In this document: positions 9,014-37,327 of the stretch, one piece after another | Layout of the letters: every line of letters starts with the position of its first letter | Numbering within the stretch: the first letter of the stretch is position 1 | NCBI GenBank assembly: GCA_050084515.1 | Contig: CM114271.1 | Coordinates: forward strand, 10,726,001-10,790,000 | From: Blasia pusilla | Lineage: Eukaryota | Length of the DNA stretch: 64,000 bases | Direction of reading: 5' to 3' | Translations under genes and position numbers: made by a program | Notes under the pieces: model-generated | The model's input: only the letters and a program-made list of their open reading frames with translations | The model's database searches: none | What the model was told of the DNA's origin: nothing

Positions 9014-9768
9014 TGTCGTGCGCATACCTATCGCTACACAACATACATCGTTGGTCACATCTACACCACACAACACCGATCTTCCCCACACACGGGTCGA
9101 TCCACACATGTACAAAAATAAACTCATACATATACATGGAGATCACACAAGAAAAATGAAGAGTAATAAAAATGGCACAACCGGCCTAAAACTCCACTCC
9201 TCAATCTACATCTGCATATTAAGCCTCGTCCACCCTGTGCTATCAAGGAATCCGGACGCTACCACCCTAGTCCTATCTCACACACATACAAGAGAGGTGC
9301 TCCAACGGCCCAACATGAGAAAGATGGCTTAGGAAAGCCATCTTCCTCTCTTATATAGGGTTGGGAAGAGCCAAAAAGCTCTTCCCCCAAAAATAGCCAC
9401 CCTTGATAACCAACGCGCACAAGTTATCAGGGGCGGGTGACCTGGTCAACAAGTCACCCGGTTGTGAAAGACCTCAACATGAAAGTTGTCAGAAACGACG
9501 TTCCTGACACAATGAACCTATTCTCAACCTCATCTGACACCGTGGGATAAAGTTATACTCAAGATAGTCCGCTGGCTCCTACGCCCTATGCACGATAGAT
9601 CTCGACCTATCGGCTATTCAGATGTGACAGCTGTCGTGCGCATACCTATCGCTATACAACATACATCGCTGGTCACATCTACACCACACAACCTTGATCT
9701 TCCCCACATACGGGTCGATCCACACATGTACAAAAATCAACTGATACATATGTATGGAGATCACACAA
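9014..9768 (-). repeat. 3' terminal B-A-B repeat block of element 1
   Basis: B (137 bp) at 9014-9150 and 9632-9768. A at 9151-9629 matches ~36857-37323. Junction CAGCTG at 9628-9633. PPT-like TTAGGGGGGTGG at 9769-9780 (minus strand). Confidence 0.9.
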
Positions 9769-9845
9769 CCACCCCCCTAACTGGCAGTTGGATCCTCCCA
9801 ACTCCAGATAGAAAAAATCACATCTCTCTGACATGACCCACTACC

Positions 9846-10631
9846 CTATACACATCTCGGACACATCCATCGTCCCGTGGGAACCACATCAAGAGGGGGG
9901 GTCAGACAAGACATATGCCACCCGTGAGAACAACCATCACATACCAACATGGTGGCTGCATTCCTCGCAGATCCGCACAACATACACCTCAAGCCCGTAG
10001 GTCCCACTGCCAAGCTCGGATCCACCGTCTTGTCTACGTTTGCAAGATGACATGGCGCATATTTGCGCACATGATCCTTCCAAACCATTGCATCCCGTCC
10101 CTCCAACATAAGTTCTCCGATCGGTAATACCTTGCGCACACGTAGGATCGTGCGTCCTATAGTGACATCTAGCATCGTGGGTAGCGCCTGCTGTAAATAG
10201 AGGTAATCTCCAGGATGAAACCTCCTAATCCCTGGACAATAACCTCCTCCACGAATGGTCCCGTACCTCGATGTATCTCTATGCTGAGCAATAGCTAAGT
10301 TCTCAAAGGCCATAGGCATAACTCGACGAAAAACCTCAGCCCTGTGAGAACACGCTTGTACCCACACATCTCAATCATCAAGATCTAACATCTCTGCCAT
10401 GTCACGTCAAATTGCTGTAGGTAAATCTGGCTCTCTCCCAAAGAGCAAAAAGTATGGTTAAAATGACGCCAAGGATGCCTGTCGACTAAAGCGATAACCC
10501 ATAGCCAACCATGGCAACTATAGGTCCCACTCCCTCAACTGTCCTCACTGCAAGCCATACCTGCGCAATTCTCTCTTTACTGTCTGTACCACTCTCTCCA
10601 TCAACCCATCCGCCTCAGGATGATCTCTGGA
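9846..10631 (-). pseudogene. Integrase C-terminal part + PHD finger
   Basis: HPEADGLMERVVQTVK integrase core. C4HC3 pattern CMLC..LVCDGC..GWHMSCLTPPL..VPTGRWMCPRC. Confidence 0.9.
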
Positions 10632-11604
10632 GGGGGCTGGTATTCTGGCAGGAGAGAGTAAGAGAGGAGAGTCTCTCTTAAAAAAAAAGGGCCAAATCCG
10701 CCTCCTCTCTTCAAAACTTTTTGACATATTTGAAAATTTTGTTTGCTTTCAAATTCAGGAAATCTTTAGAAGAGAGTATTTAGTGGTCCACATTTGGCCC
10801 TAAAAAAACCTCCTCTTTCCTGGGGGCGAGAAAAAAGGAGACATCATAAGACCACTACAAACATTTTTCCATCACTCTCCACGTGAGCCTAAGTTTCTTA
10901 ACATTCCCTGTCTCGGTCAACAAAAAACAGTGCCCTTGGTATTTTTGTTGCAGGACCACCCGGATGCCAACCTCTCTTTTTGCACGGATTGTTTCCTGCA
11001 TCATGGCCTCCCCTAAATTGCCCCATAACCAACTTTCTGTTGGTTATGAATGGTGTCTGCTCAAGACCAACTTTGTGAAATGTGAACACATAAGATCCTA
11101 AGGTGAGAAACCGAGAAGCTGCACCCCTCCCAACCCGTAAGAAAGCTCATCATAAGAAAGGAAAGATTTTTAGAAGTGATTTTCTTCCACCCTGCACCCA
11201 CGACGATCTAACAGGTTGGGAATCCGAAATGGAAATCCGACAAGTAGTAGGAATCCTGCACATCTTAGACAAGAAAAGAAGCCTACAACTGGTTTGACAA
11301 ATGAAGGGGAACAAGCCAAAAGTCAAGAAGCCCGCCACAATGCGTCAAAAGTTGGTCTCACCGGGATAGAGTCCGATCACTCAAGCAGTCAACTTGTCGG
11401 AATCCGACAGGTTTCCTGGAAATGGTAAAAAAGTTGCAGTGGGCAAAAAGCAAAAAGTTGGAACCCGTCGGAATCATACGGGTTGCAGAATTGTAATTCT
11501 GAGTAGCTAAACGAACACAATCCACAAGTCCAAAAAAATATTCCAGCAAACTTTTACAAACACCATTATGGGTTGAAAAAATCTCGTCCTTTATTACCTC
11601 TATC

Positions 11605-14600
11605 TAATTGTACAAACTATCTAAGCTGTACCCATCTGAGCATGGATCCACAGGATCCTGGATCTTGAACACCTCGAAATTGTGCTCGGGCCGAACGGCA
11701 AAGACACGCGTAGGGAGTGGTCCATCTCAGAATCAAGACGTTGGAAACAATGTCAGCAACTAAAGAAGTCGGCTTGAGAACATTTTCAATTACTGACATT
11801 GGATCAACCTATCGGAGTCCGACGGGTTGTCTTGTCCCGGACCAACCCGTCGGAAGGCGACGGGTTGGTCAAGGACTAAAACAACCCGTCGGGCTCCGTT
11901 GTTTTTGTCCATGAGCAACCCGTCGGAAGGCGACGGGTTGCTGGCCTAGAGCAGCCCATGCTCGCCTGAGAGCAACCCGTTGCTATCAGGCAGGTTGCAT
12001 CCAAAAACCAAAAGCAACTCGGAAAAACCAAAAGCAACTGCAACCCGTCAGGTTCTGACGGGTTGGAGGTACACCGCGGTTTTCCCTGTGTATGTGGGAA
12101 AGATGCAACCCGTCAGAAACTGACGGGTTGCTCTTTGCCGAGCATGGCCGCTCTAAGCCGTAAAACCCGCCGCTTCCGACGGGTTGCTCACACAAAACCC
12201 CAGATTGACACTCATTATACTCACTCAACAGAGATGAACACTCATTATACACATCATTAAAATATAATTGAAATTATAGTACAGGAATTGAGCCTTACCC
12301 GAATCTGACTCGTCGCGGATCGGAGTGGGTACTCGTTTTTGATGATCCACGATTGCGTCGTCCTCCACTTTAGCGACCTCTTGACGCACTGGAGGTTGAA
12401 GCACTCTTGACGCACTTTAGCGTCCTCGCTCCCTCCAGTCAACACCAAGAAGCAGCCCCTGTCACTCAGATAGGCGTCTGCAAAGGAGAACAAAAGCGCA
12501 ATCTGGTCATAAGAGAGCGGCACATTCCACTCAGGCACCTCGTCCGATGGATTCTCGCCCCAAAGTCGCAACCCCGAGGGCAGATCGGCGATCAAGAGAT
12601 CCACCGCAACCTCTTCGACCACTCCATTCACCGTCAAGGCAGCGTGCCCGTTTTGTTGGAGCTTCCGTCCTAGCGTTCTCAATTTTTTGATGGCTGGTGT
12701 CGACGCTTGAGAACTGAAGCTCTTTAGCTCATCCAGTAAAGGAGTGAACTGAAGGAGGACGCTTGTCCGGGTCGTTGTTTGTCTGTGTCTTCCCAAGGAT
12801 GATGGATTGTATTCTCCTTGGGACAACCCGGGCACCTCTCGCTTCCGCTTCTCCCTAGTCTGCGAACGGCTTGTCGGGGTCTCTATGACCTCAGACTTTG
12901 GTGGGGTTTTTTTCGCCGAGGACCTGGTCCGACCCTCTCTCCCCGCTCGCCCGGACGATTCCGCCTTTGGCCTTGAATCTTCAGCCTCTCTTTGGGAAGA
13001 CTCGGCCTCTGAATTTTTCCCTCCCCTCGCCTTGCCTTTGAGACCCGCTGTGGATTTGTCTTTGGTTGTGCGGACCTTGGAAGCCAACTCAGCTGTCTCG
13101 TGGGCCTGCTCTTCTGCATCTCCTCCGTAGAAGTCTTCAGGCTGGACGAAATTGGGGATGTCGTCTTGTCCTGAGGCCACTGCATCATGAAGCACTCGTA
13201 AATTCTTATCGATGATGTCTTCAGGGTCGTTGAAGTCGAGCCAAATGGGGCAATTCTCCACCTCCCAATCGGACATGTGTTGCCCCATCTCCATGTCGTA
13301 CATGGAGAATGTCTCTGCATCCGGCGGCAAAGCCCACAATTTCAAGGCTACCGGTAATTTTCCCCACGTACTTGCATTCTTACATTGGACGAGGTACCTG
13401 AAGACCATCCGTTGGGCAGCTTTTAGTCAAACACAATCGGCCGTCTGCTCCTGTAGATCTCGCTTCTTCTTCGCTTGATCCCGTTCGTTCCCCTCTACTT
13501 CTTCGTCAAGCTCTGCCTGAGGGAGGACGCAAACCTTGAACATGGTCTTGAATCCTGGGTTTTTGGTTGGCTTGTCCTGGATGTGGTCGAGCCAAACCTC
13601 GAAATCTCCAGAACTTTCAAGGTTTGCTTCATCCGGGATGGGCTCTTATCTTCTGAGCTCCGTTTGTAGACCATCCAGCACGGAGTTCCCGATAACCCGC
13701 AACGCGTCCCAGAACGACCATACGCGTATCCAGTGCGAGATCATTGGATCGGACACACCCGGAGGATGGTGTGTCGCCCTCTTCTGGGCCTCTGAGCCCT
13801 TGAGACTGATTTTCATCAGTCGGATCCTCCTAAACTCGCTTATGCCGGACAACGCAAACCGATGCACGCAATCCAGGGACACTTTCTCCCCAATCCGACC
13901 ATGCAGATCTTCATCCCTTTTCGGGCGCTTGATAATCGCCTTGGCTCCTTTGTAGAACTCCGGACCAAGTTCGGGGTTGAGAATCTTGATGTATCGCGCA
14001 TCTTGCTCGCCGTGTATTTCGTTGTCGCAGATATCGCAGCCTTGATGAATTTCGCGGCGCCAGACGCAGATACCTTCTCCCTCCGCTCCAGCTCCATCTG
14101 CAGCGCTTTTCTTGCGGCATGTATCTTCGACCAAAGCAAAGGATGGTTCTGGCCGCATCTTGGGAAATAAACTTATTTGCCCAAGTTTTTTTTTTAACTG
14201 AGCACCCTTTGCAAGCATCTGATTGACAAGGGCATTGCCCAAGAACCCCTATACTCTCCCGGTGCGTCGTAAGCACCTTCCTCATCCGATCGCAGTCATG
14301 GATCCAGTGGTGGGTGACATTTCCCTCCGATACAATCCTGCTTTCGGCCAAAAACAGTTTCGAGGCAAGCAACCCGTCGGACTCCGACGGGTTGCTTTGG
14401 GGAAAAAACCTTCTAAACTGCAGCTCGTTCGAACAACTCGCCGGAGTCCGACGAAGTTGCATTCTTCAAAAAACATCCTCACAAGGCGGCGAGTCGAACA
14501 ACCCGTCAGACTCCGACTGTTTGCTTTGGGCCAAAAACTAATTAAATCTGTGGTCAATCAAACAACTCGCCGGAGTCCGACAAGTTGCATTCTTAAAAAA

Positions 14601-15916
14601 ACATCCGAAAAAATGTGCAGTCGAGCAACCCGTCGGAGTCCGACGAGTTGCTTTCGGCAAAAACAAACCTAACCCATTCATCAATCGAGCAACTCGTCGG
14701 AGTCCGACGAGTTGCGTAAGTGTTACAGATTCTCACGTGTTCATGGCATGCATTGTCATCTCCACCATCGCCATGTGATGAGGGAATGGGTGAAGGACCA
14801 CTGCCTTCACGCATAAATGTGCCTCCAATGAGTTGGGCCGCTCCTCCGCAAACTTGGTCCATGCCATGAACCTGTGATTTCCATCCCAGATGAAGAAATG
14901 CAGATTCCTCATCCAGCTGAATTCCGTGCCCTCAACTTGCCTTCTGAAATCCTAGTCTCGCATCCTCCAGAATGTGTCGAGCTTTTCCAAGTCCTCCTCC
15001 ATAACCAGAGCTTGGGTTCCATGCTTGTCGTAAGGCTGAACATAGAAGGGAGGAAAGCGTCGGCGACGAGGATGTTTGTCGCCGATTGTTTAAGCTTTCG
15101 CGATGTCCCTCGTCGGATCGAATTTCGCGGACGTATTCCATTGTCCACAATCGCGAGTGGAATCCTCGGGCTAGGGTGGCGTCCATGAGTGCCATATGCT
15201 TTTCCACCTGTCAGAACCAGGACAAGATGAATAAGCTACACTGAATTTCCAATGAATTGCAATTCACATAATTCAAAAAACCCATATCCTCTCTTACCCG
15301 CTCGAAAATGGGGTCGGTTTCTTGACCAGCTAACTTGTCTGAGACAGAAGCTGGAAAATCGACTAGGAACTCGTCGATCCGATAGAGGTCGATGTCCTCC
15401 GCCGGGCTTGGAGTCGAATGACCGCTCTCCGCTTCTTCGCCATGTCCACCATCTCCACGCTGGCGGTCCTCATGACCTCGTCGTCATCGATTTCAACTTC
15501 TGGCGTTTCCACTATGTTGATTGTGTCCCCAGACTTCGTGGGGGACATTTCCCGCATCTCAACACTTTCAGTTGGACGGGCAGGGCTATCGCTTTTTCCC
15601 TCCTCGCTTTAGCCAATTCTGCCCTCCTCACCAACGCGTCCAGACGCTTCTTTTCTCTCTTTTCGTCGGCGATCCTTTTCTTCAAGGCCTGCGACGTCTC
15701 AGCCTCTGCGTTCTGTTTATCTTTATCTAGCGCCTCTTGAATACGTCTCGCAAGAAGCACTTGGTTGTGCATCTCTGCTTCCCTTTCCCGCTCCTCGATT
15801 TCCCGCTGCCTAATTTCATTCGCCGAACGAGGCCTAGGAGATGCTGACGTAGGAGTCCTAATGGACTTCGGAGTGAAGCTCCCAGACTTGTTGGCTTGTG
15901 ATTTTTTCCTCGTCAT
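11605..15916 (-). pseudogene. Spliced gene: coiled-coil + ParB/Srx-like + beta-class amino-methyltransferase-like domain (3' part deleted in this copy)
   Basis: ATG (MTRKKSQ) at 15916. FFIWDGNHRFMAW at ~14871-14888. VDLLIADLPSG at ~12575-12600. GT donors at ~15297, ~14737 and ~12297. Frameshifted; lacks the segment matching 54258-55545. Confidence 0.7.
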
Positions 15917-16299
15917 TTTTTCCGGAAATGCCTCCACCTATGTCCACGACAAATCCCTTGATCAGTCGCCTTGCTGATGTCGAGATGGGGAGCTCGAATC
16001 ACCTTGATGGGTAGCTCGAATGGTCCCGCGATCGCTCAGTCGAACCGTCTCGTTGTCGTTCGGTCGAACCGTCTGGCTCTCGTTCCCTCCTATCGATTCG
16101 CAATGTGTCGCCGTGTGAAACGCCCCTTCGTATCTGATCAGCTCCTGCGCGGGAGAGTGAGGAATGAAGATGGCAAAATGAGAAACCGGAAATGAGCGAT
16201 TTTTGCCCTATTTATACTTTTCTAGCCGTTGGGCTGACCGTTGGGTCCCGTCGTCCTTTCGACGGTGACCTGCCGGAGGTTACGGAAGTCCGGACGTGA

Positions 16300-16810
16300 A
16301 AAATGGCAACCCGTCGGAGTCCGACAGGTTGCGCGCCTCTGCCATCCTGGGTACGACGCCACGTGCGCGAGCAACCCGTCGGAGACCGACATGTTGCGCG
16401 CCTCTGCCGTGTTTGGGACGAGAACGGGACGTATCTTGGGCAATCCGTCGGAGACCGTTGGGTTGCACGCTTCCCTCATCAAGGTTCAAGAACGCGGGCT
16501 TCCCGTGCAAGTCGTCAGAGTCCGGCTGGCTGCACACAAGGCGAGGCCCTTGCGCAACCCGTTGGAGGGCGACAGGTTGCACGCCTCGTTGTCTTTGGGC
16601 AAATAGGTGAGGCACCCGCGGAAGTCGTCGGGAACAGACGGTCTGCACGCCTTCGGCATCTTCGGGCAAGAAGGAGCGGTATCCGAGCAACTCGTCGGAG
16701 AGGGACGGGTTGCTCGCTTTGACAATGTTTGGCAGAAGCGTGCAACCTGTCTGAAGCCGTCGGTTAGCTTCGGGTAATTTTTGAGTTACCAGGACTCCGA
16801 CGGGTTCCAA
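16300..16810. repeat. Intergenic palindrome cluster between the two divergent genes
   Basis: About 9 palindrome copies with variable spacers, flanked by outward-facing TATA-like boxes (GTATAAATA on minus at ~16209-16217; CTATAAAT at ~16963). Confidence 0.8.
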
Positions 16811-17027
16811 GTGTGATGCACAACCCTCTGCTTCCCAAATCCAGTAACATATTGAAATAGAATTGAATGTGTTACAGAATTGGATCCATTGTGTCAGACA
16901 ATATCACCCACCGAATTCATCTTGTCCGTAAAAATCTGTCAGGAGTTTTTGTTTCCTATTCACTATAAATTAAAAATTCTCACTCTCATTCTCATTCTCA
17001 GTCTCCTCCTGTTGGAATCTTATTGGA

Positions 17028-20000
17028 ATGGATAATTATGTTAAGCTCACTTGTGGCAATCATCAGCCGGCCCTTCCTCAATCAGAAATCATTCGACCCC
17101 AAGCTCGTGAGTCTTTCATAGCAATGGATGAAAATTTTCTGTCTGTTCGATTTCTTCTCCAAATTGGAACCATCTTTGTATCCAAAGATTTTAGGGTGGA
17201 CGGTACGGAAGACATAATAGGTGAGACGGTCCAGCCAAAGTGACCTCAGCATCGTAAAGTATGGAATCTCCTACCTCTAGCAAATGGTCAATACAGAGTT
17301 TACGGCCCGCTCGATTGCCTCTGTTTCCCAAGTAGACGGTCTAGAATTTCCTAGTGCTCAGAGCTCACGTTTGCAACTCCAAGCTCTGCAGATCCGGCGT
17401 CGACTCAACCAGACGCCTCGTAATAATGTTGTTCATCCCGAAGAGATTCCGGATGTTATCAACCTCGTGGATCTGGCTTGACACCAATCGGTCCCTCGTC
17501 CGCCTACGTTCCTCTTGCGAGTATCTAGAAATAGTTTGTTGTCTCGGCCTTGAAAATGTTCAAGCACATTCTTGTTGACGAGTGGTGCCCACGCACGATG
17601 GTAATTGCATTTTTGAGTTGCCTCCACTTGCGGCTCTGCTCAAAAGAAGGATGGAGGACGCTGAAGGGTATGGACAGAAAAAGTCCGATTGTCATCGATG
17701 GTGCAGCTTCAACGGACCAAAGTGCTTCAATTCCAGATGGTCCTTGATTGTCTCCCGCCGCCAATGCGTGGGAGCCTTGGAGTGTAGAAGTCCAGCATGC
17801 CCGTATCTAGAGCGCAACGGGCGAGTCAATACGTCGCAATTCCCTCCCAAGAATGCAGAAACTCCATACGAGGTCGGTGCCACCATACCGCCGGGAGGCC
17901 ATCGATGTCCTCATTGTCAGACATCGCCCTTCTACGTTGGAGCGTGTCCTGCATACATATTTTTCATTGTCCACGACTTGGGCTCCACGTCAGAGTATAC
18001 AAGGCTGGCAGTCCATGTTGACTCCCACACTCATCATGTGACCGATGCAATTCAAAGACACATCAAGGAGGATGTGGCGAAGAAAGTAGTTGAGGTCTAT
18101 AGAAACTCTCCGGGTTCAAAGCCCGGAGTGATCAAGCTCACATCGGCATCACAAATTTGTAAACAATTGCTTGGAATCCCTGGACAGGGTGAGATCACGG
18201 CGGTTGAGGAGAATCAACTCTGGGAAAATCTCGCATTTCTCGCTGATCCTGAATGCTTCCGGAAATTTGCTGCATCAAATACGAGTTCTGGATGGAAAGA
18301 CGGCCGAAATGGATGCCATCGCCACAATCAAGGCCAACTCCAGATTTCCATTCATTCAGAGATGGCAGTTCATGGGCCAAGGAGGCGAGGGATCCAGGGC
18401 CTATGTCTTCAAAATGTCAACCACAGGTCCGTCGAATGGCCTCAATCTTATAGATTGAATGAGGGAAGGGAAAGATCTTTACGGGAGCTGGGTAAGCTTT
18501 GATATTTGCTATAGAGTGCTGAACGGATGGTTGACGATGGGTGCTCACCTTTATGACCATGTGGAGAAGGGACTCAAAACTAGATTTGTCTCTGAAGTAA
18601 AGGCAGAAGACGTTGGCAGTTTGAAGATGTGCTGGTTACTCTTATTGGAGGTGGTGAAGGAAAAAAAAAGGCCACCTCCGGAAATTTATGGGTTCATGGC
18701 GGACAATGCACAACCAAGGTGGATTGCTATCCGGGAAGTGTTCTGGGGTGGAGAGGTTCAACCGGAGAGGGAAAGGTCGGATGCTTTCCATTGGCAACAG
18801 TATGTGACCCGGTACACCAAATCTTGCATCAAGGAGAATAAGAGGACAGAGCATGTGACTCTACTCCAACGCTGCAAGGACAGAAAAACCTTGAAGCAGG
18901 CCATGGAATGCCAGGAAGAACTTCATGGGTGGTGGAGGAAGCATGCGATTGAGGGGAAGTACAAAGAGTTGTGCTCTTGGTTGAGTTGGTGGACTGTACG
19001 TATGAGACAATGGGGAAACTTCATGCGGCAGGTGAGTTCACTATTTTTTCTTGTCAAGCTCACGCTGAGAATTGTTTGTAAAGTTGTAGCTCAGGGTGAG
19101 AAGCGTGGGAATTATATGGATTTCAAACCCAAGAAACCAAGCAAGCTGTCGGATGCGACGGGTTGCCCGAGTGTGCAACCCGACGGAAACCGATGGGTTG
19201 CCCGATTGTGCAACCCAAGTGTGCAACCCGTCGGGACCAGATGGGTCAAAGAGTCGTTCATGGGATGCCTCGGCCTTGCAACCCGTCTGGTTCCGACGGG
19301 TTGCAGTAGGTGGGCTTAAGGTTACAACACGTCGGGACCCGACGGGTCGCAGAGTCGTTCATGGGATGCCTCGGGCTTACAACCCATCTGGTTCCGATAG
19401 GTCGCTTATTTCTTTGACTCCTGAGTTATTTTCGTTCCCTTCTAACATTGCCGTCGTTGCAGGGATTGAACGTTCATGAAAATGCCCTCTGCCCCAACAC
19501 AAGTGGAGCGAAAGTGTTCATTCCTCTTGAGGTCGTCACAAGCATGCCAACGAATTTCACTTGTGGAGGCATGCCAACAAGACCAGGCAAGAGCAATGCT
19601 ACAGTCTGCAGCATCCCATATCTTCCTCACAAAAGGCATAACAAAAGGAAAGGGGCCGTCGATCTACGAGCTCTATGTCAGGGCGGCTGTGAGATCTGGT
19701 GATGAAAAAATGTAGGTGGAAGCCTTCAACCGGTGCGTATCTGGAACTCCACTCGAGCAAGACGTACACATTGGTGGGGATATTTGTGGGCGGGTTTCAA
19801 GACGTCCCACACAGATGGTGGTAGAGCGATCGAGCGAGACTCGTGGAGACCAGATAAGTATCTTGACTTCAGGCAGGTGAAGAGGCAGCATCGAGGAACG
19901 AATCCGATGATTGATTTGGATGAGGAAATTACACCGCCCTGGTATTCGGGGACCCCGAACCCGTCCCAAATCCGTGATGGAGTTACTTCTGCAAAATCAG

Positions 20001-20485: not shown

Positions 20486-20566
20486 ACCTTCGCATTTCGT
20501 ATTCAACCCAAGCATTGGTGGTGCACACGCACTAGAGTGAAGTGCAGCTCCTCGATTCAAAAAAAG

Positions 20567-20760
<194 letters not shown>

Positions 20761-25611: not shown

Positions 25612-25723
25612 ATTAATTCATAGTTGTTTTTTTGGTACTCATCATTGTGTTTTTTTTTTGGTATGATTCAAATAATTGACTTTTTTTACGAGGATGTAAG
25701 TGAATTCTGGTGTTGTTGGGCAT

Positions 25724-28700: not shown

Positions 28701-29690
28701 CACACAAAAAGAGGCAATGGCAACTACACAATCTGGTGGTAAGTAGAGAATTTAGCTTCACTACATGTAGGGTCTTATAATATAATTACTTGTTGAAGTG
28801 AAGAATCTGGTTTTACAATTCATTTCTCAATACTTGGGTTGTTTGTTGAAGTGCGTAACGGAGCAACAAAAGGAGAAGTTCCACAGAAAAAGTGCAGATG
28901 GTGATACTCGAATCACTCGTAAGTATGTCATCCTTGGCATAATGAATTTATCTGTGGCATAGTTTTCAAACTATCCACGAAACAAAACTCATTTCTTCCT
29001 ACAACCTTCAATGGACTTTGTCGTGCATAATGTGCAGAAAACGTGAGTATGGATAGCCAAGCCAAATCATCACCAGCCAAAAGAAAGAAGTCTAGGCTAC
29101 AATCTGATGGTTTGAATGAGCAGGAAAGTGAAATCAGATCAGGCTCGTCTAAGAAAATAACTAAGGTAATTTATCTCATCTATAATGGCCTCTTCTATTC
29201 AAGGTTTATATGACGACACTGATAATTCTTGTTGTGGACAGTCAAATGGTTGTCTAGGACTTGTGAACTTTTTACATCATCTTCCGAAATGGGGATGGTC
29301 TTTCAAACAGGTATATCATAGCAATTTTTTATTTTCAGATTAATGGTGCAAATGCATGTGGAAAGAATTTGAATTGATACTAACTAAATGCACGTGTATT
29401 TTTTTAGCTACGAATTGGTGATCACGTATTACTCACCAAGCCAAAGTTGAGTAGGATGGTGCTTGGGTCAGGAGTTATATCAGGTTTTGGTGGAAGAGAC
29501 AAGTTCCATGCCAAAGACATCCCTTTAGGCGTGGTGAGGGTTGATCTAAACGAGGTGTTCGAACCAGAACATGCTTTGTGGATGCCGAATTTGATAGACG
29601 AACCTGCACAAGAAACATTTGGTGATGCTCTTGGTTCAAGCATGCTGTGACTAGAGATGCATATGAGAAAGGTGATTCAATAGAATAGTC
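25724..29690 (+). pseudogene. Second CACTA gene (TnpA-like position), many short exons
   Basis: Short exon-like blocks with GT/AG borders between Tnp2 and the right TIR. Last block reads GVISGFGG..FHAKDIP..VVRVDL. Identity inferred mainly from position. Confidence 0.5.
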
Positions 29691-30722
29691 TTTTCTTTTG
29701 GCACCCAACTATCTAAGGTGCAATAACTTTATTTTCATGGATGACATAATCTCTCTTGCTCTTTCAAGATGAGATCATAAACCCTACTATATTTGATCTT
29801 TGTTTTTTTTATCTATTTTTTAATGATAACCCCATGTAATAATGATTAATTTTGTAATTTGGTGTATGGAAGCTACTCTTAAGTGACATTCCACCCCTCA
29901 AAATCTGTTTTCAAAAGAGGATTTCAATAATTCAGATCCATTCATTCTTGCACCGTTCAAAAGGCATAATAAACATCCCAAAATATCCGAAATTTATATT
30001 CCCACTAGTCATATCAATATAACTTGCACAGTATTCTTCAAAAACTAAAGTAGTAAGCTTCAAGTTCTCTCTAGTCATAATTGTATGACTCATGCAGTTC
30101 TGTTGCAATGGCTATATAATTTCTGCTACTCACATAGTCATATCTTCGTGACTAAACCAGTTGTGTCCTCTTTTAGAGTAGTCACGTAACTCTACTCTTC
30201 TAGTCATAGTACATGACTACAGGAGTCCATACCAACATTTCAATAAAATAAAATGACTACATGAGTTGCCAACTATAACTCAATGGAGTATACTTGGTGC
30301 ATTTTTATAGGATATTATGAACTTTTGCACACCAACCATGACTAAAGGAGTCGTTGGTGGTAACTAGAAAAATATACACATATGACTAGACGAGTCGTAC
30401 TCAAGTCCACATCATCAGTGACATGTCACAGCAATAGTCCATGTCATCAGTGACACATCACACTAAATAGTCCATGTCATTGATGATGTGTCATTATTCC
30501 ACATCATCTGAGTGACGTGTTAGTCATGGCCTCATGACTACACCCTCGAGTCATATACCAACCTCCATCTAAGCTGACCATCCTAGTTAGCCTAGTCGCC
30601 AAAAAAATATGACTTGGCTTTTGTGTCTAAAGTAGTCGTTAGTCATTGTTAGTCGTGGTATGTTAAATATGACTCATATGAGTCATATAACCTAGTCATA
30701 AAACCACGGATTTCTTCTAGTG

Positions 30723-32352
30723 AGCTGAAGTGTTGACCGACCAGGGTACAGAGTTTCAAGGTGAGTTTTAGGTCTTGTGTGACAAGGTGTTGATTGATCA
30801 TCGGACCACATCTCGAGATCATCGAGAGGCAGATGGTTTGGCTGAGCGTGTGGTTCAGACACTGAAGAGGGCATTGCGCAAGTATGGCCTACAAAAGGGG
30901 CATCTTGGAGACAGGGTTATTCAGTTGCCATGGTTAGCCATGGGGAATAGGTTCAATCGCCAAGCATCCTTGGCTTCCTTCTCACCTTATTTTTTGTTAT
31001 ACGGCCGAGATCATGACTTGCCAGCAGCAATTCGTTGGGAGTCTAGTAAGGTGGTGAACCTTGACAACCCAGAGATGTGGATGAGAGTGTGTTCTCAGCG
31101 GTCAGAGCCCTTCCGAAGAGTTATGCCAATATTCTTTGAGAATCTTGCCATTGCTCTACACAGGGATACGTTGCGGTATGCAACCATTCGGGGTGGAGGT
31201 TATCGAACATCGATTCGTAGGTTCCGTGTGGGGGACTATGTCTATTTTCAGCAGATTGCACCGACAACGTTGGATGTGACGGCACGCCGCTCTATTTTAC
31301 GAGTGCGCGAGGTGTTAGCTAGTGGAGTTCTCATGTTGGAGGTTCGTGATGGAGTTGTTTGGAAGGACCATGTGCGTAATTGTGTGCCATATCATCTTCC
31401 AAATGTGGATGGTAGTGTTGACCCAAGCTTAGCCATGATACGTGCTAGCTTGAGGTGTATGTTGTGTGGGTCTGCTGGTAACGCAGCCCATATGTTGGTG
31501 TGTGATCGGTGTTCTAGGGGTTGGCACATGATGTGTTTGACTCCACGTATGGATGTTGTTCCTACTGGAAGGTGGGTTTGTCCTCGATATACTTAGGAGG
31601 GATATATAACTTGATCTTTGCATAATATGGATTATAGATGTGCAACTAACGATGGGGCAACCTAGCACCCGGCCTTCTGATTCGTGCACCCCCGAAGGTG
31701 TATAGCATGTAGTAGATGTATAGGGCTACTTGGGAGTTAGAGGGACCTAACCGCCAGTTAGGGGGGGCGAGTTATGGTACACTTGTGTTTGTGGATGCTC
31801 TCCTCTATGTTATGTATGTAGGTGAGTATGGTATGTCAGCAATGTATGTTGTATGACGATGTGGATTCGCACGACAACTATCATGACCCTACGGATTATG
31901 TCGTAGAGTATAGTGTGCTAGTAGAGGCCGTACCTTATGTAGGGCCGTAGTGTCTAGGTAGAGATGTAGTTTCATACATAGGGTTGGGGGTTACTCCATT
32001 GAGGGTGACTTTTCCAGTAGGGCCCGCTCTTAGGTTGGAGGATATAGTGTGGAGTCCGCTCAAAGAACAGTTAGTTCTTTGAGTTGAGCTTATTGCGTTG
32101 GGAGTTAGCCTTGGTAGTGAGCAGAGCTCTTGGTTATGGTGGTTCCTGCAAGCTTCGACGTGGATTCTCCCATCGTGGAGTGGGTTTGGCTTGATTTTAT
32201 GTGATTCTATATGTGTTTTATGACAGTAGGTTTTTCATGGATTTTAGTTGTGGTACACTTCTGTTTGTGGATGCTCTTGTCTATGTGATGCATGTAGGTG
32301 AGTATGGTATGTGAGCGATGTATGTTGTATGACGATGTGGATTCGCACGATA
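30723..32352 (+). mobile_element. 3' part of gypsy-type element 2a: integrase-PHD + B-A-B end
   Basis: VLTDQGTEF, DGLAERVVQTLK, PHD at ~31455-31590. PPT at ~31758-31771. B at 31772-31876 and 32248-32352; A at 31879-32247; junction CAACTA (mutated CAGCTG). Confidence 0.9.
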
Positions 32353-35300
32353 GAGTGTCTCCCAACAACAGAACGTTCTCCAAAATTTACGTTGGAGAAC
32401 ATGTCTGACTCTCCTGCAAATGTCGTACTACTCGTAGCATCTCCCAAAACATCCCTAACCTAGGATCTTGCAATCCAAATCCTCGGCCAGTTGATGAATG
32501 ATCCTGACATGGCCATCTAGCAATTACCAAGTGAATGGTGCCAACTCTATCCAGATCGTGCGCCCCCACCAAAGAGATGTGGACGGGTAGTGTATGCTGA
32601 TTTTCCCGTACTGCAGATACCGACAACAACTCACGATACCTCTGGACCAATCTCGCCACATGACATAATGATACTCGTTGCGCAATCTCATCTCTCTCTA
32701 TATAAAGGTGTTGATGCACCCGTATGCCTTCCTGCACAATTGCAGCCAATCCGGTGCTAATCCCTCCGAAGAGATCTAACACCCTAACACCCTCCTCTGG
32801 GCACTCCCACACAACGGATTAGGTATCTAGTGGGATCAACGTCTCCACTCCAAGAGCCCGATCACCACATGACTCTCGCTGCTCCGGGATAAAGGCACGA
32901 CTCCACGCCTGCCTCACGAGGTTTTCGGCACTCCTCAATAGCTCTCAAGTCGTACCCCACAATGGTGAAGAGGTCTCGCCAATATGGGAAGAGACACCCG
33001 CCATGGCCTGTCTCTCCGTGGGACTATCCGCTACTGGGACATCCTCCGCATGTGCGTTCCCCTCCAAAAACTCTTCTGGCTAGCTAACACTACTTGTGAA
33101 AGCTTCCAACGTGGTCACAGACTCGCCTCGTGATCGACCACCTCATCCCGCAAACTGCACGGGTAACTGTCTCATCCGCCCGTCACTTGACCGCCACCCT
33201 GGCCGATAAGCAATGGTCTCCTCCCAAAAGCCAAGGATGAATCCTAGGGGATATAATACTGTACTCCCCACCAACATATCATACGACTCAATTGGTGTCA
33301 TAATCGCACGTGTGCGCACCATAGCACTATTCGTCGCATGCTCTAGTTGGACTCTGACAACTATCTCCTATCGAGTCATATACTGTGTGGGTGACACGCC
33401 CCCAATTGAGGTCTGTATCTCGAAGGGACAAGGCTCAATGTCGGCCTTCCGTAACCCCAACGCTAAACACGCCTCCTTCCCTAACATCAAGGGTTGCGCT
33501 CCCGAATCAAGTAGGACGCGCTGCAGGTGGTATACTGTCCCCGTGGGACTAACCAAGCGAAATACTCCGGCTCGGTTATTCGGTAACACTACTCAAGGTG
33601 TCACCACTGCTCGCTCTATGGCTGGTCGAGCTGGCATATCTACCAACTTCGCCGCCACCGCATGCCATGACTTTGTGGGGAACGTCCCGAGCACCGGCTC
33701 TGAGGGCAAGTCCACCACCTCCTCAACTACCTCTGAACAAGAAGCAGTCATCTCTCCACGCTCACACAACGTGGCGGCTAGCAAGAACACCTCAGATGGT
33801 CCAACTCCCAACGTCGCCAACTCTATGGCGGAGAATAGTGGAGTCTGACTCACTGTGGTGGCCATCTCCAACACTATGGTCGACATTGACTCCACTCGAG
33901 CAAGCATAGGAGTTGTCACTCCAACTCCTCATGATGTCAACGCACCTGCCTGAGCTATAGGCACCGCTGGTCGTCGAGTCACCATCGATGGTGTGTGTAG
34001 TGCCTCCAACAATGTGAATGACTGTGGAACCCTGGCCTGCCGCCCATCAGTCCCCTCTGGTGGGTCAATCTCAACTCCACCTCTCGATGGCTCGGTGCCT
34101 CTCGCAGCACCTCAATTCACCATTGTAGCTGCCTCAACCCCTGGGCTGCACTACACATAAACCCCATACTGGCAAGATCCTCACCCGAGTCAGGGTAAGA
34201 GGTAGAAGCTGGAGCCACACTAGCTGCTCGCGGCTCCGTGCCTTCCCTCAACTCCATCATCGTCATGGCAGCAATCCTATGCTCCAATTGATCGATGCAT
34301 GAGAGAAGTGCAGGCTCTGGTGCTCCTGCTCCATCTCCTCTGGCTGGTGGTGGTCCTCTACCACCACGTTCAAGAAGAACTCCCCGACCTCCTCTAGGAT
34401 GACCGCCCCCAGGCCCTCAACTTACCTCTGGACGTGCCTCTCGGCGAAGGTCAAAACACTTATCCCTAGTGTGACCATATTTGTGGCAATAGTCACACTG
34501 GTGCTGTGGTGGGGCCATCCTCTGTGGATTGCTATAATTTGAGCATATTGAGCTCAACATGAGTGAGGAGCAGGTAGTGACCGTTGGATTTTCTCGAGAG
34601 TCAACAAGAGGCGCTCGTGGTCCTCTCCCATGTTGTGAGTAGTCTCTCTGCCTATGGGCCCCTCCACACGTCCAACAAGACCACATCGATCCCTGCTGGG
34701 CAACATATGTAGGTACGGGTTGTTGCCTCATAGGCTTACGGTACCCGCCCTGCTCTCTAGGCACACCGGCCCACTCCCGTGGTATTGGTGCTCGTTGTGG
34801 CACCTATGGGGTCACCGGCGCTCATGGACCCATCGACTCTCGAGAAAATCCAGCGGTCACTACCAGCTCCTCACTCATGTTGAGCTCAATACGCTCAGAC
34901 AACTCAAAGACCACCTTCAATGTGGGCTTCGCTGTGTGAATCAGCACCCCATCTCGGACTCTCCTCCGTAGTTCTCGATCTAGAATCCCATACCAATACT
35001 GGACTGACTGCGCCTCGGTCACTTCATAGGTAGCAATGATCAACATCCTCATGCGTATGAATGCCTCTCTCAGACTCTCACCCGATCGTCACTGAAAATC
35101 TTGTAGACTCTTCAGCTTGTTGATGCGTACGCCCTAGCAGCTCTTCCCCAAGTGTCGGAAGAACTCCTGGGTGGCCCTCTACCACCAAAGGTCTCTGCCA
35201 TATCGCGTGTCTCACTGCCCTCCTCTCCATCTAGTCTTCGGGCTGATGGTGTGGGTCTCTCTCCTCTCACAATCCCATCATATGCCTCGCGACCACTAGT

Positions 35301-35726
35301 GAACACATACCTGGAGCCCAATACATCCTCTAGGCATTGATCTCTACTGAATATAGTGATCGAAAATCCATGTAGTCATCAGTCGGAGGACCCTCCAAGT
35401 GCTGGAACAACCCCTTCCATGCCATGAAAGGGTTGAACCTGTCGGGGTCCGTATCTCCTAGAAGTCGCACACGTGTCAAACTCCTGGATAAAATCATCTA
35501 AGTCAATGGTGTCCACTGCACCCAAGAAACGACGCATGCCCCGATGGCCCATGTCGTCCATCTCTTGCCAAGTACTACTGTCTCTGTCCGCGATCTTGTC
35601 ACCAGACCCAGTGTCTAGTGATGAAGATCCAGCCACGGATGGATGTCGAGGTAGCTCCTCACTGGTAACCCCTCGGTATCTCACTCCACTCCGTGTCACA
35701 CCACTACCACTACCCTGTTCTTCCAA
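32353..35726 (-). pseudogene. Element 1 gag - aspartic protease - C5 DNA methyltransferase (degenerate)
   Basis: Zn knuckles CWTCGGAH and CDYCHKYGH..C. VLLDSGAQP. VRVLDLFGGIST, IARWPCQ, LENV. Confidence 0.88.
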
Positions 35727-36856
35727 ACACTCAAAGAACGCCGTGATGACAAAACCTATCTCACCCGCTCAAGCACTGAGACTCACCAAGAGTCTCCCAC
35801 ACTCCTCACTAGCTCACCTATGCTTACATCAATCTCGTGATGACATACCCGGCCTCACACACCCTCAACACTTGGGCTCACCATGAGCCTCCCAACTGAC
35901 TCACCTAACCTAGCAACACTCTCTCGGATCATACACGCAACCCCCACTTGGAAACCGCCGTATATCCACCAACATGCTACACATGAAAAGAATCTACACT
36001 CGTCACCATCACTGCACCCACCTAGCACTAGCTACTACCCGATACCCAGCTCTCTAAATCACACATGAAAAGTGTGGGAAAAGGGACTCAAATGGGTAAC
36101 CTGATCATGCCCTCCAACCTACGGTATCGTCAACACGCACTCCCCCATGTGACACGGCAACCTCTGCAACACGACACTCCCCCATGTAACACGGCAACCT
36201 CTGCAACACGACACTCTCCTCGACCAACACGTCAATCCTCCCGTCATCAAATGCGGACAACCCGTCGGCGTCATGCGCACTGACACTCCATCGTCAATTT
36301 TTGCAAATCCCCGTCACGCCCGAAAGCATCATGTCGCGCAAACCTCTTTGCCTATCCCCACACGCGGCTTGTAACCTGAATCAACCTGGTCTGGCTCCAC
36401 TCCTACCACGTACTCAGATCCACCACATCCACCCCCACTTGGTAGCCTTCTCACCACGTCGACCTTCTTCCACGTCCGGTCCTACCACGTTGGAGGGGGT
36501 TGGTTGCGGCTCCGCACCCGGCCGTCTCCGCAACCTAAATGCGACCTACATGCCTATGCAACCTTTCCTCCGCCTCCGCCTCTGCAACCTTTCCTTCCTG
36601 CTCTTTCTTGACACTCTCGCTACTCTCGACGATGCACTTGCCGCCCCACTCCGTACTACACTCTGCCATTGTCCTCAATCCCTGTGCACTAGCAAACTCT
36701 GAGAAAAATGGACAGCGCTTCTGCCCACGGCCTTCCGGACAGAAAAATGACCAACACCCGCAACAAACGCATCTCCAGGGGCTCCCAACCAAGGCAACTT
36801 GCTTACCTACCTGCAAACAACAAATTCCCACCAGCCCCCCGACATCTTTCTCATAT

Positions 36857-37323
36857 AAAAATAAAGAGTAGTTAAAATGGCACACCCGGCCTAAAACTCC
36901 ACTCCTCAATCTACATCGGCATATCGAGCCTCGTCCACCCTGTGCTATCAAGGAATCCGGACGCTAGCACCCTAATCCTATCTCACACACATAGAAGAGA
37001 TGTGCTCCAATGGCCCAACATGAGAAAGATGGCTTAGGAAAGCCATCTTCCTCTCTTATATAGGGTTGGGAAGAGCCAAAAGGCTCTTCCCCCAAAATAT
37101 CCATCCCCTTGGTAACGTGCGCGCACAGGTTACCAGGGGCAGGTGACCTGGTCAACAAGTCACCCGACTGTGAAAGACCTTAACATGAAATTTGTCAAAA
37201 ATGACCTTCCTGACACAATGGACCTATCCGACAGCGTGGGACAAAGTTACACTCAAGATAGTCGGCCGGCTCCTACGCCGTATCCATGATAGATCTCGGC
37301 CTATCGGCTACTCAGATGTAACA
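36857..37323 (-). repeat. 5' terminal A repeat of element 1
   Basis: Matches 9151-9629, with no B segment attached. Sense strand starts TGTTACATC. Confidence 0.9.
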
Positions 37324-37327
37324 CATA

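Follow-up and report, generated by a model that had tools for sequence, protein, structure and literature searches.

Positions 9014-37323 of the window, the whole 64-kb stretch of DNA that was analysed, very probably represent an old, nested and internally deleted copy (element 1) of a streptophyte Ty3/gypsy lineage, as judged from its identity and anatomy. The terminal repeats of this copy are arranged as A-genes-B-A-B, and this insertion layout is a trait of the lineage, not a nesting artefact. When identity and anatomy are combined with a mechanism that integrates a permuted cDNA, the whole account is one towards which we lean, with some reserve.

Anatomy of element 1

In sense, which is the minus strand, element 1 consists of A1, a leader, gag, half of a DNMT domain, about 21.7 kb of mostly foreign DNA, the C-terminal end of the integrase with a PHD finger, the PPT, B1, GC, A2 and B2, and its termini are TG...CA (Table 1). 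The split repeats A...B-A-B and the CATA/CATA flanks described in the original prediction are borne out: A1 (36857-37323) and A2 (9152-9629) are 88.3% identical over 480 alignment columns, and B2 (9008-9150) and B1 (9626-9768) are 91.6% identical over 143 columns, with the exact borders of the repeats set by motif coordinates. Residues 18-69 of a Copia RNase H frame (56865-57359) align to the left flank, ending at 9013 (E 3e-18), and residues 69-151 align to the right flank, from 37325 (E 8e-21). The two flanks abut to the codon in this frame, so the whole of 9014-37323 is the product of a single integration event, and the 4-bp CATA/CATA TSD is more than a chance match.

RT, RNase H and the integrase core are missing from this copy. 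Neither an HHCC nor a DDE core is present in 9014-37323, where the only pol-like pieces are 10631-9852, which comprises the end of rve, the C-terminal part and the PHD finger, and a foreign family-2 fragment at 30724-31587. The HHCC+DDE integrase attributed to the element is found in the family-2 copy (59523-58967), and not in the flagged copy itself. The two recognisable parts of element 1 are separated by 10632-32352, about 21.7 kb of the 28.3 kb, and the pieces identified there are foreign; 18622-30725 is characterised in part only. No recognised protein domain was found in Unit X by Pfam.

Table 1. Coordinates of element 1, of the DNA inserted into it and of its relatives in the window
Feature	Position	Strand	Evidence or remark
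TSD, 5' side of element 1	37324-37327	-	CATA on +, TATG in sense; flank continuity in Copia RNase H frame
A1, 5' terminal repeat	36857-37323	-	starts TGTTAC; 88.3% identical to A2
TATATAAG (TATA box) in A1	37062-37055	-	motif coordinates
Predicted RNA 5' end CATCTTTCTCAT in A1	37031-37020	-	motif coordinates
Predicted self-priming PBS ATGAGAAAGATG	36843-36854	-	2 nt past A1 end; perfect complement of 37031-37020
5' internal part of element 1	32353-36842	-	leader, gag-like region, zinc-finger region, N-terminal half of C5 cytosine methyltransferase
Gag-like region, element 1	about 35807-34654	-	tblastx vs family 2; blastn vs family 4
C5 cytosine methyltransferase, N-terminal half, element 1	32893-32353	-	cut off at 32353; Pfam DNA_methylase match in 32387-32818
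3' internal part of element 1 (last integrase portion, C-terminal PHD finger)	9783-10631	-	tblastn with P0014 residues 1253-1513, 54% identity, E 4e-79; PHD E 1.4e-11
Polypurine tract (PPT) AGTTAGGGGGGTGG	9769-9782	-	adjoins B1 on its upstream side
B1, ending ...CGCACGACA (CGACA)	9632-9768	-	91.6% identical to B2
GC spacer between B1 and A2	9631-9630	-	motif coordinates
B/A junction ACA-GC-TGT	9627-9634	-	palindrome with both integrase end sequences back to back; motif coordinates
A2	9152-9629	-	starts TGTCAC; TATATAAG at 9357-9350
Filler base C between A2 and B2	9151	-	single extra base
B2, 3' terminal repeat	9014-9150	-	ends ...CGACA at 9014
TSD, 3' side of element 1	9010-9013	-	CATA on +
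Unit X, 6.2-kb repeat, sharp boundaries	10632-16798	-	second copy 48727-56532, opposite orientation, 89-94% identical
Further DNA that separates the parts of element 1	16799-30725		repeat and CACTA-type transposase found in parts
Repeat common to 16956-18621 and 3237-5278	16956-18621		lies between parts of element 1
CACTA-type transposase	Transposase_21 22698-23318; DUF4218 23765-24463		domain matches
fam2b, nested 5'-truncated family-2 copy	30726-32352	+	89.8% identical to 58969-57368; PHD match; alignment
fam2b PPT	31754-31767	+	preceded by integrase C-end with PHD
fam2b B'-A'-B' end	B' 31772-31876, spacer AC, A' 31879-32247, B' 32248-32352	+	alignment, motif coordinates
fam2a, family-2 copy running off window	57366-64000	-	Pfam, tblastx, tblastn, alignment
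fam2a gag/zinc finger	63934-62600	-	
fam2a DNMT	62266-61259	-	tblastx and tblastn
fam2a RT	60940-59968	-	
fam2a RNase H	60022-59438	-	
fam2a integrase HHCC (Integrase_H2C2)	59523-59209	-	Pfam
fam2a rve	59293-58967	-	Pfam
fam2a PHD region	58890-58113	-	
fam2a PPT	57955-57943	-	
fam2a B'-A'-B' end (57366-57938)	B' 57938-57834, GC, A' 57831-57471, B' 57470-57366	-	
Family-4 copy, 5' part only	38520-45606	+	cut by Copia insertion
Family-4 predicted RNA 5' end; PBS	38520-38535; 38696-38711	+	16-nt perfect complement
Family-4 gag	about 40320-41504	+	
Family-4 DNMT	43268-44225	+	DNA_methylase match 43550-44104
Family-4 RT	44596-45606	+	

Relatives and lineage

The relatives of element 1 in the window carry gag, DNMT, RT, RNase H, HHCC/DDE integrase and PHD; where relatives are intact, their coding capacity runs from gag and protease through a DNMT3-like methyltransferase, RT and RNase H to an HHCC+DDE integrase and a C-terminal PHD finger. 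The C5 cytosine methyltransferase domain sits inside the gag-pol coding region, both in the window copies and in the relatives. The gypsy assignment made in the original prediction agrees with the order RT - RNase H - HHCC/DDE integrase, by which the lineage is Ty3/gypsy-like, and the closest solved structure is that of Ty3 Gag-Pol (7q5b, E 2e-94). At the C terminus lies a PHD finger; Pfam scans of the window ORFs and the long proteins gave no match to a Chromo family. The best match of the integrase-PHD ORF of the window is from Marchantia polymorpha (80%), and the host is liverwort-like.

The Klebsormidium nitens protein P0045, which carries DNMT, RT, RNase H, HHCC and rve domains, is 50% identical to this integrase-PHD ORF over 66% of the query (E 1.9e-41); it is marked partial and has no PHD match, unlike the window lineage. 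By its sequence, element 1 very probably belongs to the "Gypsy-DNMT3" lineage first seen in Klebsormidium, as it combines a methyltransferase domain, homology to the K. nitens element and a DIRS-like repeat layout with Gypsy domains. The features of ordinary Ty3/gypsy elements are found in part. Element 1 has TG...CA termini with a TSD in the 4-5-bp range, and a PPT before the 3' repeat and a predicted PBS after the 5' repeat, but these two signals delimit B-GC-A rather than the inserted ends, and the ends are not two equal LTRs, with A only at the 5' end and B-GC-A-B at the 3' end. With the DIRS order it has in common the split direct repeats A1...B1-A2-B2, but not a tyrosine recombinase ORF or the absence of a TSD.

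The repeat layout matches that of tyrosine-recombinase elements (PMC8969392), which raises the question of whether such an enzyme, acting in trans or overlooked, integrates the element as in DIRS, Ngaro and PAT, leaving the DDE integrase as a relic. The domain search that the original prediction had called for found no Phage_integrase match among the 67 window ORFs (Pfam) or the nine long proteins, which include two nearly whole elements, and the integrase is well preserved. Integrase_H2C2 and rve are both present in eight of the nine long proteins (in the ninth, L048, whose ORF ends prematurely, H2C2 alone was matched), and both are kept in distant relatives with many invariant alignment columns. 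TG...CA ends with a 4-bp TSD are the mark of DDE integration. Both are present here, whereas DIRS-type elements are described as lacking TSDs (PMC8969392), and integration by a tyrosine recombinase is thus very improbable.

Repeat layout across relatives

The B-A-B end recurs, as originally reported, in both copies of family 2 (31772-32352 and 57366-57938), which follow the same repeat design as element 1 with an A that is otherwise unrelated. An alignment of 14 polyproteins retrieved 80 related metagenome loci, in which the layout was also followed; their contigs are short-read assemblies from unknown hosts. A pol-B-A-B end is present in 25 of the 80 loci (19 once near-identical loci are removed), and A lies upstream of the genes in 17 loci, none of which has B before that A. 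Identical full LTRs at both ends, named beforehand as the arrangement that would speak against the prediction, were not found: none of the 80 loci has the standard LTR layout. Three candidate exceptions (L024, L073 and L075) were rejected, as they are deletions from the PHD region into A2. The proposed tabulation of termini and TSDs could also be carried out: among nine two-ended elements, compared by eye, the TSD matches at four of four bases in four, at three of four in three and not at all in two. Family 2 keeps the ACA-N2-TGT junction, as do 22 of 23 rows compared, with GC as the spacer in 14, AC in six, AT in one and GT in one.

It is scarcely credible that ordinary two-LTR elements acquired the layout through nesting, unequal recombination or the duplication of part of an LTR. 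Element 1 is very degraded and, with its pol core lost and so much DNA inserted, invites such a reading, and a 4-bp match alone could be due to chance; its flanks, however, abut to the codon. The layout, the PPT before B1 and the conserved palindrome recur at the two 3' ends of family 2, and the survey counts point the same way, with many B-A-B ends, no B before an upstream A and no standard form. The Klebsormidium elements are also drawn with the same layout in the published figure (PMC5890265).

In 20 of the 80 loci, pol-B is followed by unrelated DNA, and B ends exactly at ...CGACA. These B-only loci may be what integration first produces, or they may reflect deletion between two B copies (B x B) or a collapse in assembly. 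If they were primary, A-genes-B would be cut from a linear (B-GC-A)...(B-GC-A) cDNA at two inner sites, and B-A-B would be a minority by-product and the only form able to replicate. Their number and exact ends suit this idea, as do a perfect CCAA TSD at one of them (L025) and a copy in the window (copy 2) that has a PPT plus B without A. B x B recombination and assembly collapse would, however, give the same picture. Two loci (L011 and L012) whose sequences agree to more than 98.5% across 1.5 kb or more differ in exactly this respect, one ending in B-A-B and the other in B only, and three of the four element ends in the assembly of the window, which has only one element with both ends, are B-A-B. 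We regard A-genes-B as an improbable primary product, and A-genes-B-A-B is taken as the inserted form in what follows.

Priming signals and RNA

No TGG-type PBS directly follows A1, as had been noted earlier, and one TGG occurs 23 nt further on. The bases just past A1 instead form a predicted Tf1-type self-priming site. In family 1, to which element 1 belongs, the PBS and A share a 12-nt perfect complement that is reached in 0 of 2000 shuffles, with its start 31 nt past the initial T of the TATA box, and in family 4 the complement is 16 nt long (0 of 1000 shuffles reach 16 nt). Complementarity of 10-17 nt is found in 12 of the 17 A1-bearing loci (0-3 of 500 shuffles reach it), and in ten of these 12 it lies 31-34 nt after TATA[AT]A. 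Four different sequence pairs of PBS and 5' end co-vary. For family 2, the leader was taken by eye from the consensus of loose DNA ends beyond A', and its complement lies at 57646-57635. In several loci the last 3-6 nt of A are part of the complementary stretch, so that the exact U5 end is uncertain.

The position and G-run of the PPT are the same in family 2 and in the metagenome relatives. Two RNA runs with the same species label contain sense reads over integrase-PHD, PPT, B', GC and A', at a depth of 26-309 compared with 0-13 for antisense reads. RNA depth drops across the transcribed part of A toward its end without doubling, which may be an edge effect, as the mapped stretch ends there, and no transcription start site stood out in read depth over A.

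Proposed mechanism

In the proposed mechanism, transcription would start approximately 30 nt after the TATA box inside A1, and the first 10-17 nt of the RNA would fold back on the complementary site just after A1 and prime the minus strand, as described for Tf1 (PMC7175516). Plus-strand synthesis would begin at the G-rich PPT directly before B1. Because the PPT adjoins B and the predicted self-priming PBS adjoins the end of A, reverse transcription should end at the start of B and the end of A, and its product would be (B-GC-A)-genes-(B-GC-A). These outer ends are predicted not to serve as substrates of the integrase, whose end sequences (...ACA and TGT...) would instead stand back to back, 2 bp apart, inside the RT-defined LTR. 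With the integrase sites inside this B-GC-A unit, the inserted copy is expected to be circularly permuted. The joint between the end of A and the start of B, found once per inserted copy, would represent the two joined ends of the RT product, and the integrase would open the end-joined molecule, probably a 2-LTR circle, at the B/A palindrome and insert it as A...B-A-B. Several details fit a joint newly formed through imprecise end joining: A-end/B-start joints in most rows of DNA contigs from run X1 carry varying fillers of 1-3 letters, family 1 has the filler C, and in L054, L055 and L062 B2 is missing 5 nt that B1 has and carries an extra G.

The original prediction had proposed a circularly permuted, probably circular cDNA. 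Permutation is supported independently by the placement of the PPT and PBS, but the circle is called into question. A 2-LTR circle holds two identical B/A palindromes, and if these were opened at random, A-B-A-genes-B (the mirror form) and A-genes-B-A-B should be equally frequent, whereas the mirror form was seen in 0 of 17 loci. The circle model thus holds only if one of the sites is preferred or mirror forms are lost quickly; otherwise a linear route has to be assumed. In such a linear route, priming would be the same and no circle would form; RT would add an extra B to the right end of the linear cDNA, perhaps through a jump from the A end of the minus-strand template to the start of B, and the integrase would process the outermost A-start and B-end. 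From a linear molecule that contains three palindromes, A-genes-B-A-B, A-genes-B and A-B can arise but not the mirror form, and this fits the missing mirror forms and the many B-A-B and B-only ends, and the variable A/B fillers fit non-templated addition at template jumping. Against this, the integrase would have to cut 105-180 nt from the left end, no sequence mark indicates where the jump would stop, and we know of no retroelement that makes such a jump regularly. The linear route is a doubtful alternative, and opening of an end-joined, probably circular molecule remains the favoured reading.

Comparison with known systems

The layout had already been described. KnitGypsy-Dnmt3 of K. nitens has the repeat structure of DIRS elements with the domain composition of Gypsy elements (de Mendoza et al. 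2018, PMC5890265, Fig. 4c legend) and, like the window lineage, a Gypsy pol with an inserted DNMT3-like domain (PMC5890265). As far as the passages on this alga go, the layout was noted there, once before, without explanation of mechanism; the text on KnitGypsy-Dnmt3 gives no TSD, palindromic junction, PPT/PBS placement or replication model (PMC5890265). SymbioDIRS-Dnmt3, on the side of the DIRS-order elements, also has a DNMT3 domain (PMC5890265). What is new here is the complementarity of the bases after A1 to a site in A that follows the TATA box by approximately 30 nt.

Tf1/sushi and Tcn1-type elements carry a chromodomain, and their two LTRs are equal and bounded by TG...CA. The window lineage differs from them in its predicted integrase sites inside the RT-defined LTR and in a PHD finger as C-terminal reader. 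It resembles them in lacking a tRNA-type PBS and in having, past the 5' repeat, a complement to the predicted first RNA bases (Tf1: PMC7175516), and the self-priming Tcn1 clade has been reported from mosses and club mosses (PMC6317226).

The A1-internal-B1-A2-B2 layout of Ngaro/PAT/TOC1-type elements (PMC8969392) is common to the window lineage. Those elements carry a tyrosine recombinase and have no TSD, whereas the window lineage has an HHCC+DDE integrase, TG...CA ends and a 4-bp TSD.

The palindrome of retroviruses forms in the circle only, and the provirus carries normal LTRs. The window lineage, in contrast, has the palindrome in every inserted copy, with a 2-bp and not a 4-bp spacer, and the permuted form is inherited. 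The likeness lies in the cleavage step: as proposed here, a palindrome of two viral ends back to back, the 2-LTR junction, is cut to processed ends by the foamy-virus integrase (PMC1180852), and HIV-1 has been reported as a second case of integrase cleavage at the palindromic junction of 2-LTR circles (PMC1905944).

Architecture of the Flagged Insertion

The sense strand of element 1, the family 1 copy at 9014–37323, is the minus strand, along which A1, internal DNA, PPT, B1, GC, A2, C and B2 follow one another. In the self-comparison of the window, A1 (36857–37323) and A2 (9152–9629) are 88.3% identical over 480 columns, while B2 (9008–9150) and B1 (9626–9768) are 91.6% identical over 143 columns. 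The B end and the A start form the palindrome ACAGCTGT, and TATATAAG is present within A of family 1. The element is flanked on both sides by one Copia element, whose direct repeats (7903–8291 and 37632–38039, 86% identical) are read as its LTRs, and whose left side contains a weak RVT_2 match (8411–9121). With a further Copia RNase H frame of the window (56865–57359) as reference, its residues 18–69 align to the left flank up to position 9013 (E 3e-18) and its residues 69–151 align to the right flank from position 37325 (E 8e-21), the single shared residue corresponding to the 4-bp duplication. As the flanks are continuous in this frame, 9014–37323 arrived as one piece ending in the A start and the B end; it is a single insertion and not a patchwork. 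The split direct repeats described in the original prediction are confirmed by the self-comparison.

Features of element 1 and of two related copies in the window
Feature	Position	Strand
TSD, 5′ side (TATG in sense)	37327–37324	minus
A1, first bases TGTTAC	37323–36857	minus
5′ part of element 1: leader, gag-like region, zinc-finger region, first half of cytosine methyltransferase	37323–32353	minus
3′ part of element 1: last part of integrase, PHD finger, PPT, B-GC-A-B	10631–9014	minus
PPT AGTTAGGGGGGTGG	9782–9769	minus
B1, last bases CGCACGACA	9768–9632	minus
Spacer GC	9631–9630	minus
A2, first bases TGTCAC	9629–9152	minus
Single filler C between A2 and B2	9151	minus
B2, last bases CGACA	9150–9014	minus
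TSD, 3′ side (TATG in sense)	9013–9010	minus
Family 2 copy: gag/zinc finger, DNMT, RVT_1, RT-RNase H, Integrase_H2C2, rve, PHD region, PPT, B′, GC, A′, B′	57366–64000	minus
Family 4 copy: gag, DNMT, RT, then cut by Copia	~38520–45606	plus

The two halves of element 1 are parted by ~21.7 kb (10632–32352), in which all identified pieces are foreign: unit X (a repeat described below), a repeat common to 3237–5278, a CACTA-type transposase and a 5′-truncated family 2 element; 18622–30725 is only partly characterised, and "foreign" applies to the identified pieces. The B-A-B end of the nested family 2 element (31772–32352) adjoins the broken methyltransferase of element 1. The transposase fragments, of CACTA/En-Spm type, lie at 22698–24463 (Transposase_21, E 1.7e-49; DUF4218, E 3.2e-28). 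In a tblastn search of 9014–37323 with a full relative (P0014), neither an RT nor an RNase H nor the core of an integrase was found, and the HHCC and DDE integrase originally attributed to this copy is therefore a property of the family and not of the flagged copy.

Layout across the Lineage

Eighty metagenome loci were retrieved with an alignment of 14 polyproteins, and all were annotated with a library of A and B segments drawn from loci showing a B pair. The order pol-B-A-B was found at the 3′ side of 25 of the 80 loci (19 once near-identical loci are merged), and in L043 an additional B-A-B sits within a pol match that is interrupted. In four loci, pol-B-A is followed by a cut or a truncation, with a 29-nt B2 remnant retained in one of them (L008), and L024, L073 and L075, the last two being one locus, carry deletions from the PHD region into A2. 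In another 20 loci, pol-B is followed by unrelated DNA; these may be primary products of two inner sites, B × B deletions or assembly collapse, and of the near-identical pair L011 and L012, one has a B-only end and the other a B-A-B end. In the remaining loci, the 3′ end was not reached or no library segment matched. An A copy is present 4–5 kb upstream of the pol match in 17 loci, none of which has a B preceding it. None of the 80 loci has equal LTRs, and the refuting case named in the original prediction, in which most copies carry full LTRs at both ends and the A...B-A-B arrangement is a nested or recombined artefact, therefore does not hold.

The metagenome junctions match the design in the window, with a G-run PPT adjoining B, a B end of CGACA and an A start of TGTCATG; the 2-nt spacer between B and A is GC in 14, AC in 6, AT in 1 and GT in 1 of 23 rows, the other row having no B pair. 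Among the nine elements having both ends, TSDs were read by eye and are perfect in four (TATG in the window, ACAA in L080, CCAA in L025 and CCAC in L008), match at three of four bases in three (L055, L041 and L037) and are absent in two (L057 and L023). The metagenome contig L001 contains two long open frames, gag-protease-DNMT and then RT-RNaseH-integrase-PHD, followed at 8540–8665 by the PPT, B, a GT spacer and TGTCAC; its ends overlap in sequence, as expected from assembler collapse of A1 and A2 in a young copy.

Predicted Primer Binding Site and RNA Start

The sequence that begins directly 3′ of A1 is reverse-complementary to a site within A, ~30 nt downstream of a TATA box, where transcription should be expected to start. 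In family 1, ATGAGAAAGATG (36854–36843) is complementary to CATCTTTCTCAT (37031–37020), a 12-nt match reached by 0 of 2000 shuffles, and in family 4 the complement extends to 16 nt (38696–38711 with 38520–38535; 0 of 1000 shuffles). A complement of 10–17 nt, reached by 0–3 of 500 shuffles, is found in 12 of the 17 metagenome loci with A1, and in 10 of these 12 it lies 31–34 nt after TATA[AT]A; three others are degraded (8–9 nt), and it is absent in two entries, which are one locus. For family 2, whose 5′ end lies beyond the window, the leader was taken as the common sequence of loose ends at 57472 of DNA contigs from the same organism, and its first 12 nt (by eye) are complementary to 57646–57635, 30 nt after the TATA box. 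The four pairs of predicted PBS and RNA 5′ end thus differ in sequence with the pairing kept, and such co-variation appears to be the signature of Tf1-type self-priming (PMC7175516), a mechanism predicted for a Tcn1 clade in mosses and club mosses (PMC6317226).

A TGG lies 23 nt past A1 in family 1 and at the same distance (by eye) in the family 2 leader consensus, but was rejected as a TGG-type PBS because a U5 reaching that far would have to follow A2, which is not seen. Sensitive blastn found no B remnant past A1. A short hairpin in families 1 and 2 (37062–37020, also 9357–9315; 57670–57635; 32059–32083) has the predicted RNA 5′ end as its 3′ arm; its 5′ arm, just upstream of the predicted start, resembles the PBS itself and is absent from moss-type relatives. 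Family 4 carries a 96% identical tandem duplication (38696–38801 and 38810–38915) covering the PBS and the first ~100 nt of the leader.

A Proposed Model of Replication

As the PBS adjoins the A end, that base would be the last of U5, and as the PPT adjoins B, U3 would start at the first B base. If reverse transcription follows its usual course, it would then yield (B-GC-A)-genes-(B-GC-A), the expected outer ends of which (left TTGTG... or ATACATG..., right ...ATTTTT or ...TTTAAT) are without TG and CA; the integrase TG and CA lie back to back within the B-GC-A LTR. The inserted form, A-genes-B-GC-A-B, would correspond to this cDNA with its ends joined, creating an A–B joint, and then opened at the left-hand palindrome. 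Contigs of DNA run X1 contain A–B joints with differing fillers of 1–3 letters; across related loci the joint is mostly precise, with one added base in some and a loss of 5 nt and gain of 1 in L054, L055 and L062, and in family 1 of the window it has an extra C. The variable fillers and the differing joints among relatives fit with a joint formed afresh through inexact end joining. Foamy virus (PMC1180852) and HIV-1 (PMC1905944) provide precedents for an integrase that cleaves a palindromic LTR–LTR junction.

Opening of the other, identical palindrome of a two-LTR circle would be expected to give the mirror form A-B-A-genes-B, but none was seen among the 17 upstream A copies, which does not fit the circle model unless the integrase prefers one palindrome or the mirror form, whose two A copies would be long and close together, soon disappears. 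The main rival explanation invokes no circle and has a linear molecule gain the additional B. The circularly permuted cDNA proposed in the original prediction is strengthened by the placement of the predicted PBS and the PPT. Tentatively, and at somewhat less than even probability, this streptophyte Ty3/gypsy lineage must pass through an end-joined cDNA, probably a two-LTR circle, opened by its own DDE integrase at a built-in ACA-GC-TGT palindrome, the layout having arisen independently of tyrosine recombinases from the position of the integrase sites in the LTR.

Transcription

Among the indexed runs, no RNA run was listed as containing the sequence; the RNA evidence comes from the raw reads of two non-indexed runs, labelled with the species of the DNA run that best contains it. 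Sense RNA covers the integrase-PHD region, PPT, B′, GC and A′ of family 2 at a depth of 26–309, compared with 0–13 in antisense, and this coverage shows that the B–A joint is transcribed and that the family is expressed. The joint from A to B2 is not among the RNA matches listed for the two runs. Depth drops across the transcribed part of A, and the reads of the two runs give no convincing RNA start or end, which may be an edge effect, as the surveyed stretch ends there. An apparent RNA beginning at 57670 was rejected as a start and read as clipping caused by an 8-nt indel between the window copy and the expressed copies. A few reads (4 in run X22, 9 in run X23) join 57798 to 57518, from near the A′ end back by 281 to 35 nt past the A′ start.

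Proteins and Genomic Setting of the Lineage

Families 1 and 2 have unrelated A repeats; conserved between them are the PPT, ~40 nt at the end of B, the GC and the first A bases. The family 2 integrase-PHD ORF matches proteins of Marchantia polymorpha (80% identity), other liverworts and many metagenome proteins, as well as a DNMT-RT-RNaseH-integrase protein of Klebsormidium nitens (50% identity), and the lineage occurs in Klebsormidium as well as in DNA that is liverwort-like or moss-associated. Nine long proteins (four from the family 2 ORF protein search and five ORFs of metagenome loci) contain protease, DNMT, RT, RNase H, HHCC, rve and PHD domains by Pfam, and none of the nine matches a tyrosine recombinase family in Pfam; the closest solved structure to a lineage protein is Ty3. 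The DNMT precedes the RT in P0014, P0045 and L001 and lies between RNase H and integrase in P0042 and P0035, and is a domain relocated or twice acquired within the lineage. By analogy with the chromodomains of chromoviruses, the C-terminal PHD finger might steer integration to a chromatin state.

All four lineage insertions in the window (9014, 32352/32353, ~48728 and 57366) lie inside other transposons: two family 1-type 3′ units and one family 2 copy in or just past the 3′ part of Copia pol, and the remaining family 2 copy inside the family 1 methyltransferase. The two host Copia elements occupy 7903–9013 with 37324–38039, and 45590–48728 with ~56905–57359; the first is internally deleted, with the end of RT coming almost at once after the left terminal repeat, which is taken to be an LTR.

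Unit X is a repeat of ~6.2–7.8 kb whose two copies (10632–16798 and 48727–56532) are 89–94% identical with the same sharp boundaries. Neither copy has a Pfam domain match, and an LTR or TIR element was rejected as no terminal repeat was found. Both copies lie just upstream of a family 1 3′ region: copy 1 adjoins the integrase C-end, whereas in copy 2 the PPT comes next without a gap, then one B-like repeat (56533–56678), beside which sensitive blastn found no A, and then ~226 nt of uncharacterised DNA. The copy 2 assembly is inserted in Copia, between RT and RNase H. Unit X may be a passenger, or else may form the core of a non-autonomous relative; a third piece of it is present at 2959–3131. 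Tandem arrays occur with a 45-nt period at 568–927 and with units of ~64–129 nt at 14361–14715 and 51060–51303, one inside each unit X copy.

Relation to Known Elements

LTR finders would be expected, as originally predicted, to mis-annotate such elements by pairing A1 with A2 and missing B2 and the TSD, mis-dating or mis-classing copies, and the lineage will have escaped surveys that require equal LTRs. The family is expressed, and the tractable model Marchantia has the closest relatives at the protein level.

KnitGypsy-Dnmt3 of Klebsormidium nitens was described by de Mendoza et al. 2018 (PMC5890265), whose Fig. 4c legend assigns it a DIRS-type repeat structure together with Gypsy domains, and later papers mention streptophyte Gypsy-DNMT3 only in passing; an account of TSDs, palindrome, priming sites or a replication model for the lineage was not found in the literature covered, which took in few subscription journals and main texts without supplements. 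The present element is a liverwort-like addition to a kind already in print. What is new, as read from sequence signals, is a probable reason for the layout, in that priming sites and integrase sites would set different ends, and an oddity from one figure legend becomes a testable replication model.

Split direct repeats are the textbook mark of tyrosine-recombinase elements, and equal LTRs that of DDE-integrase elements. The lineage breaks this link between repeat layout and integration enzyme, and touches two old questions: by what means retroelements with split repeats restore their ends, and whether an integrase can use a circle junction in vivo. If the model is true, integration of this lineage would require as its substrate a molecule that in retroviruses is a dead-end by-product.
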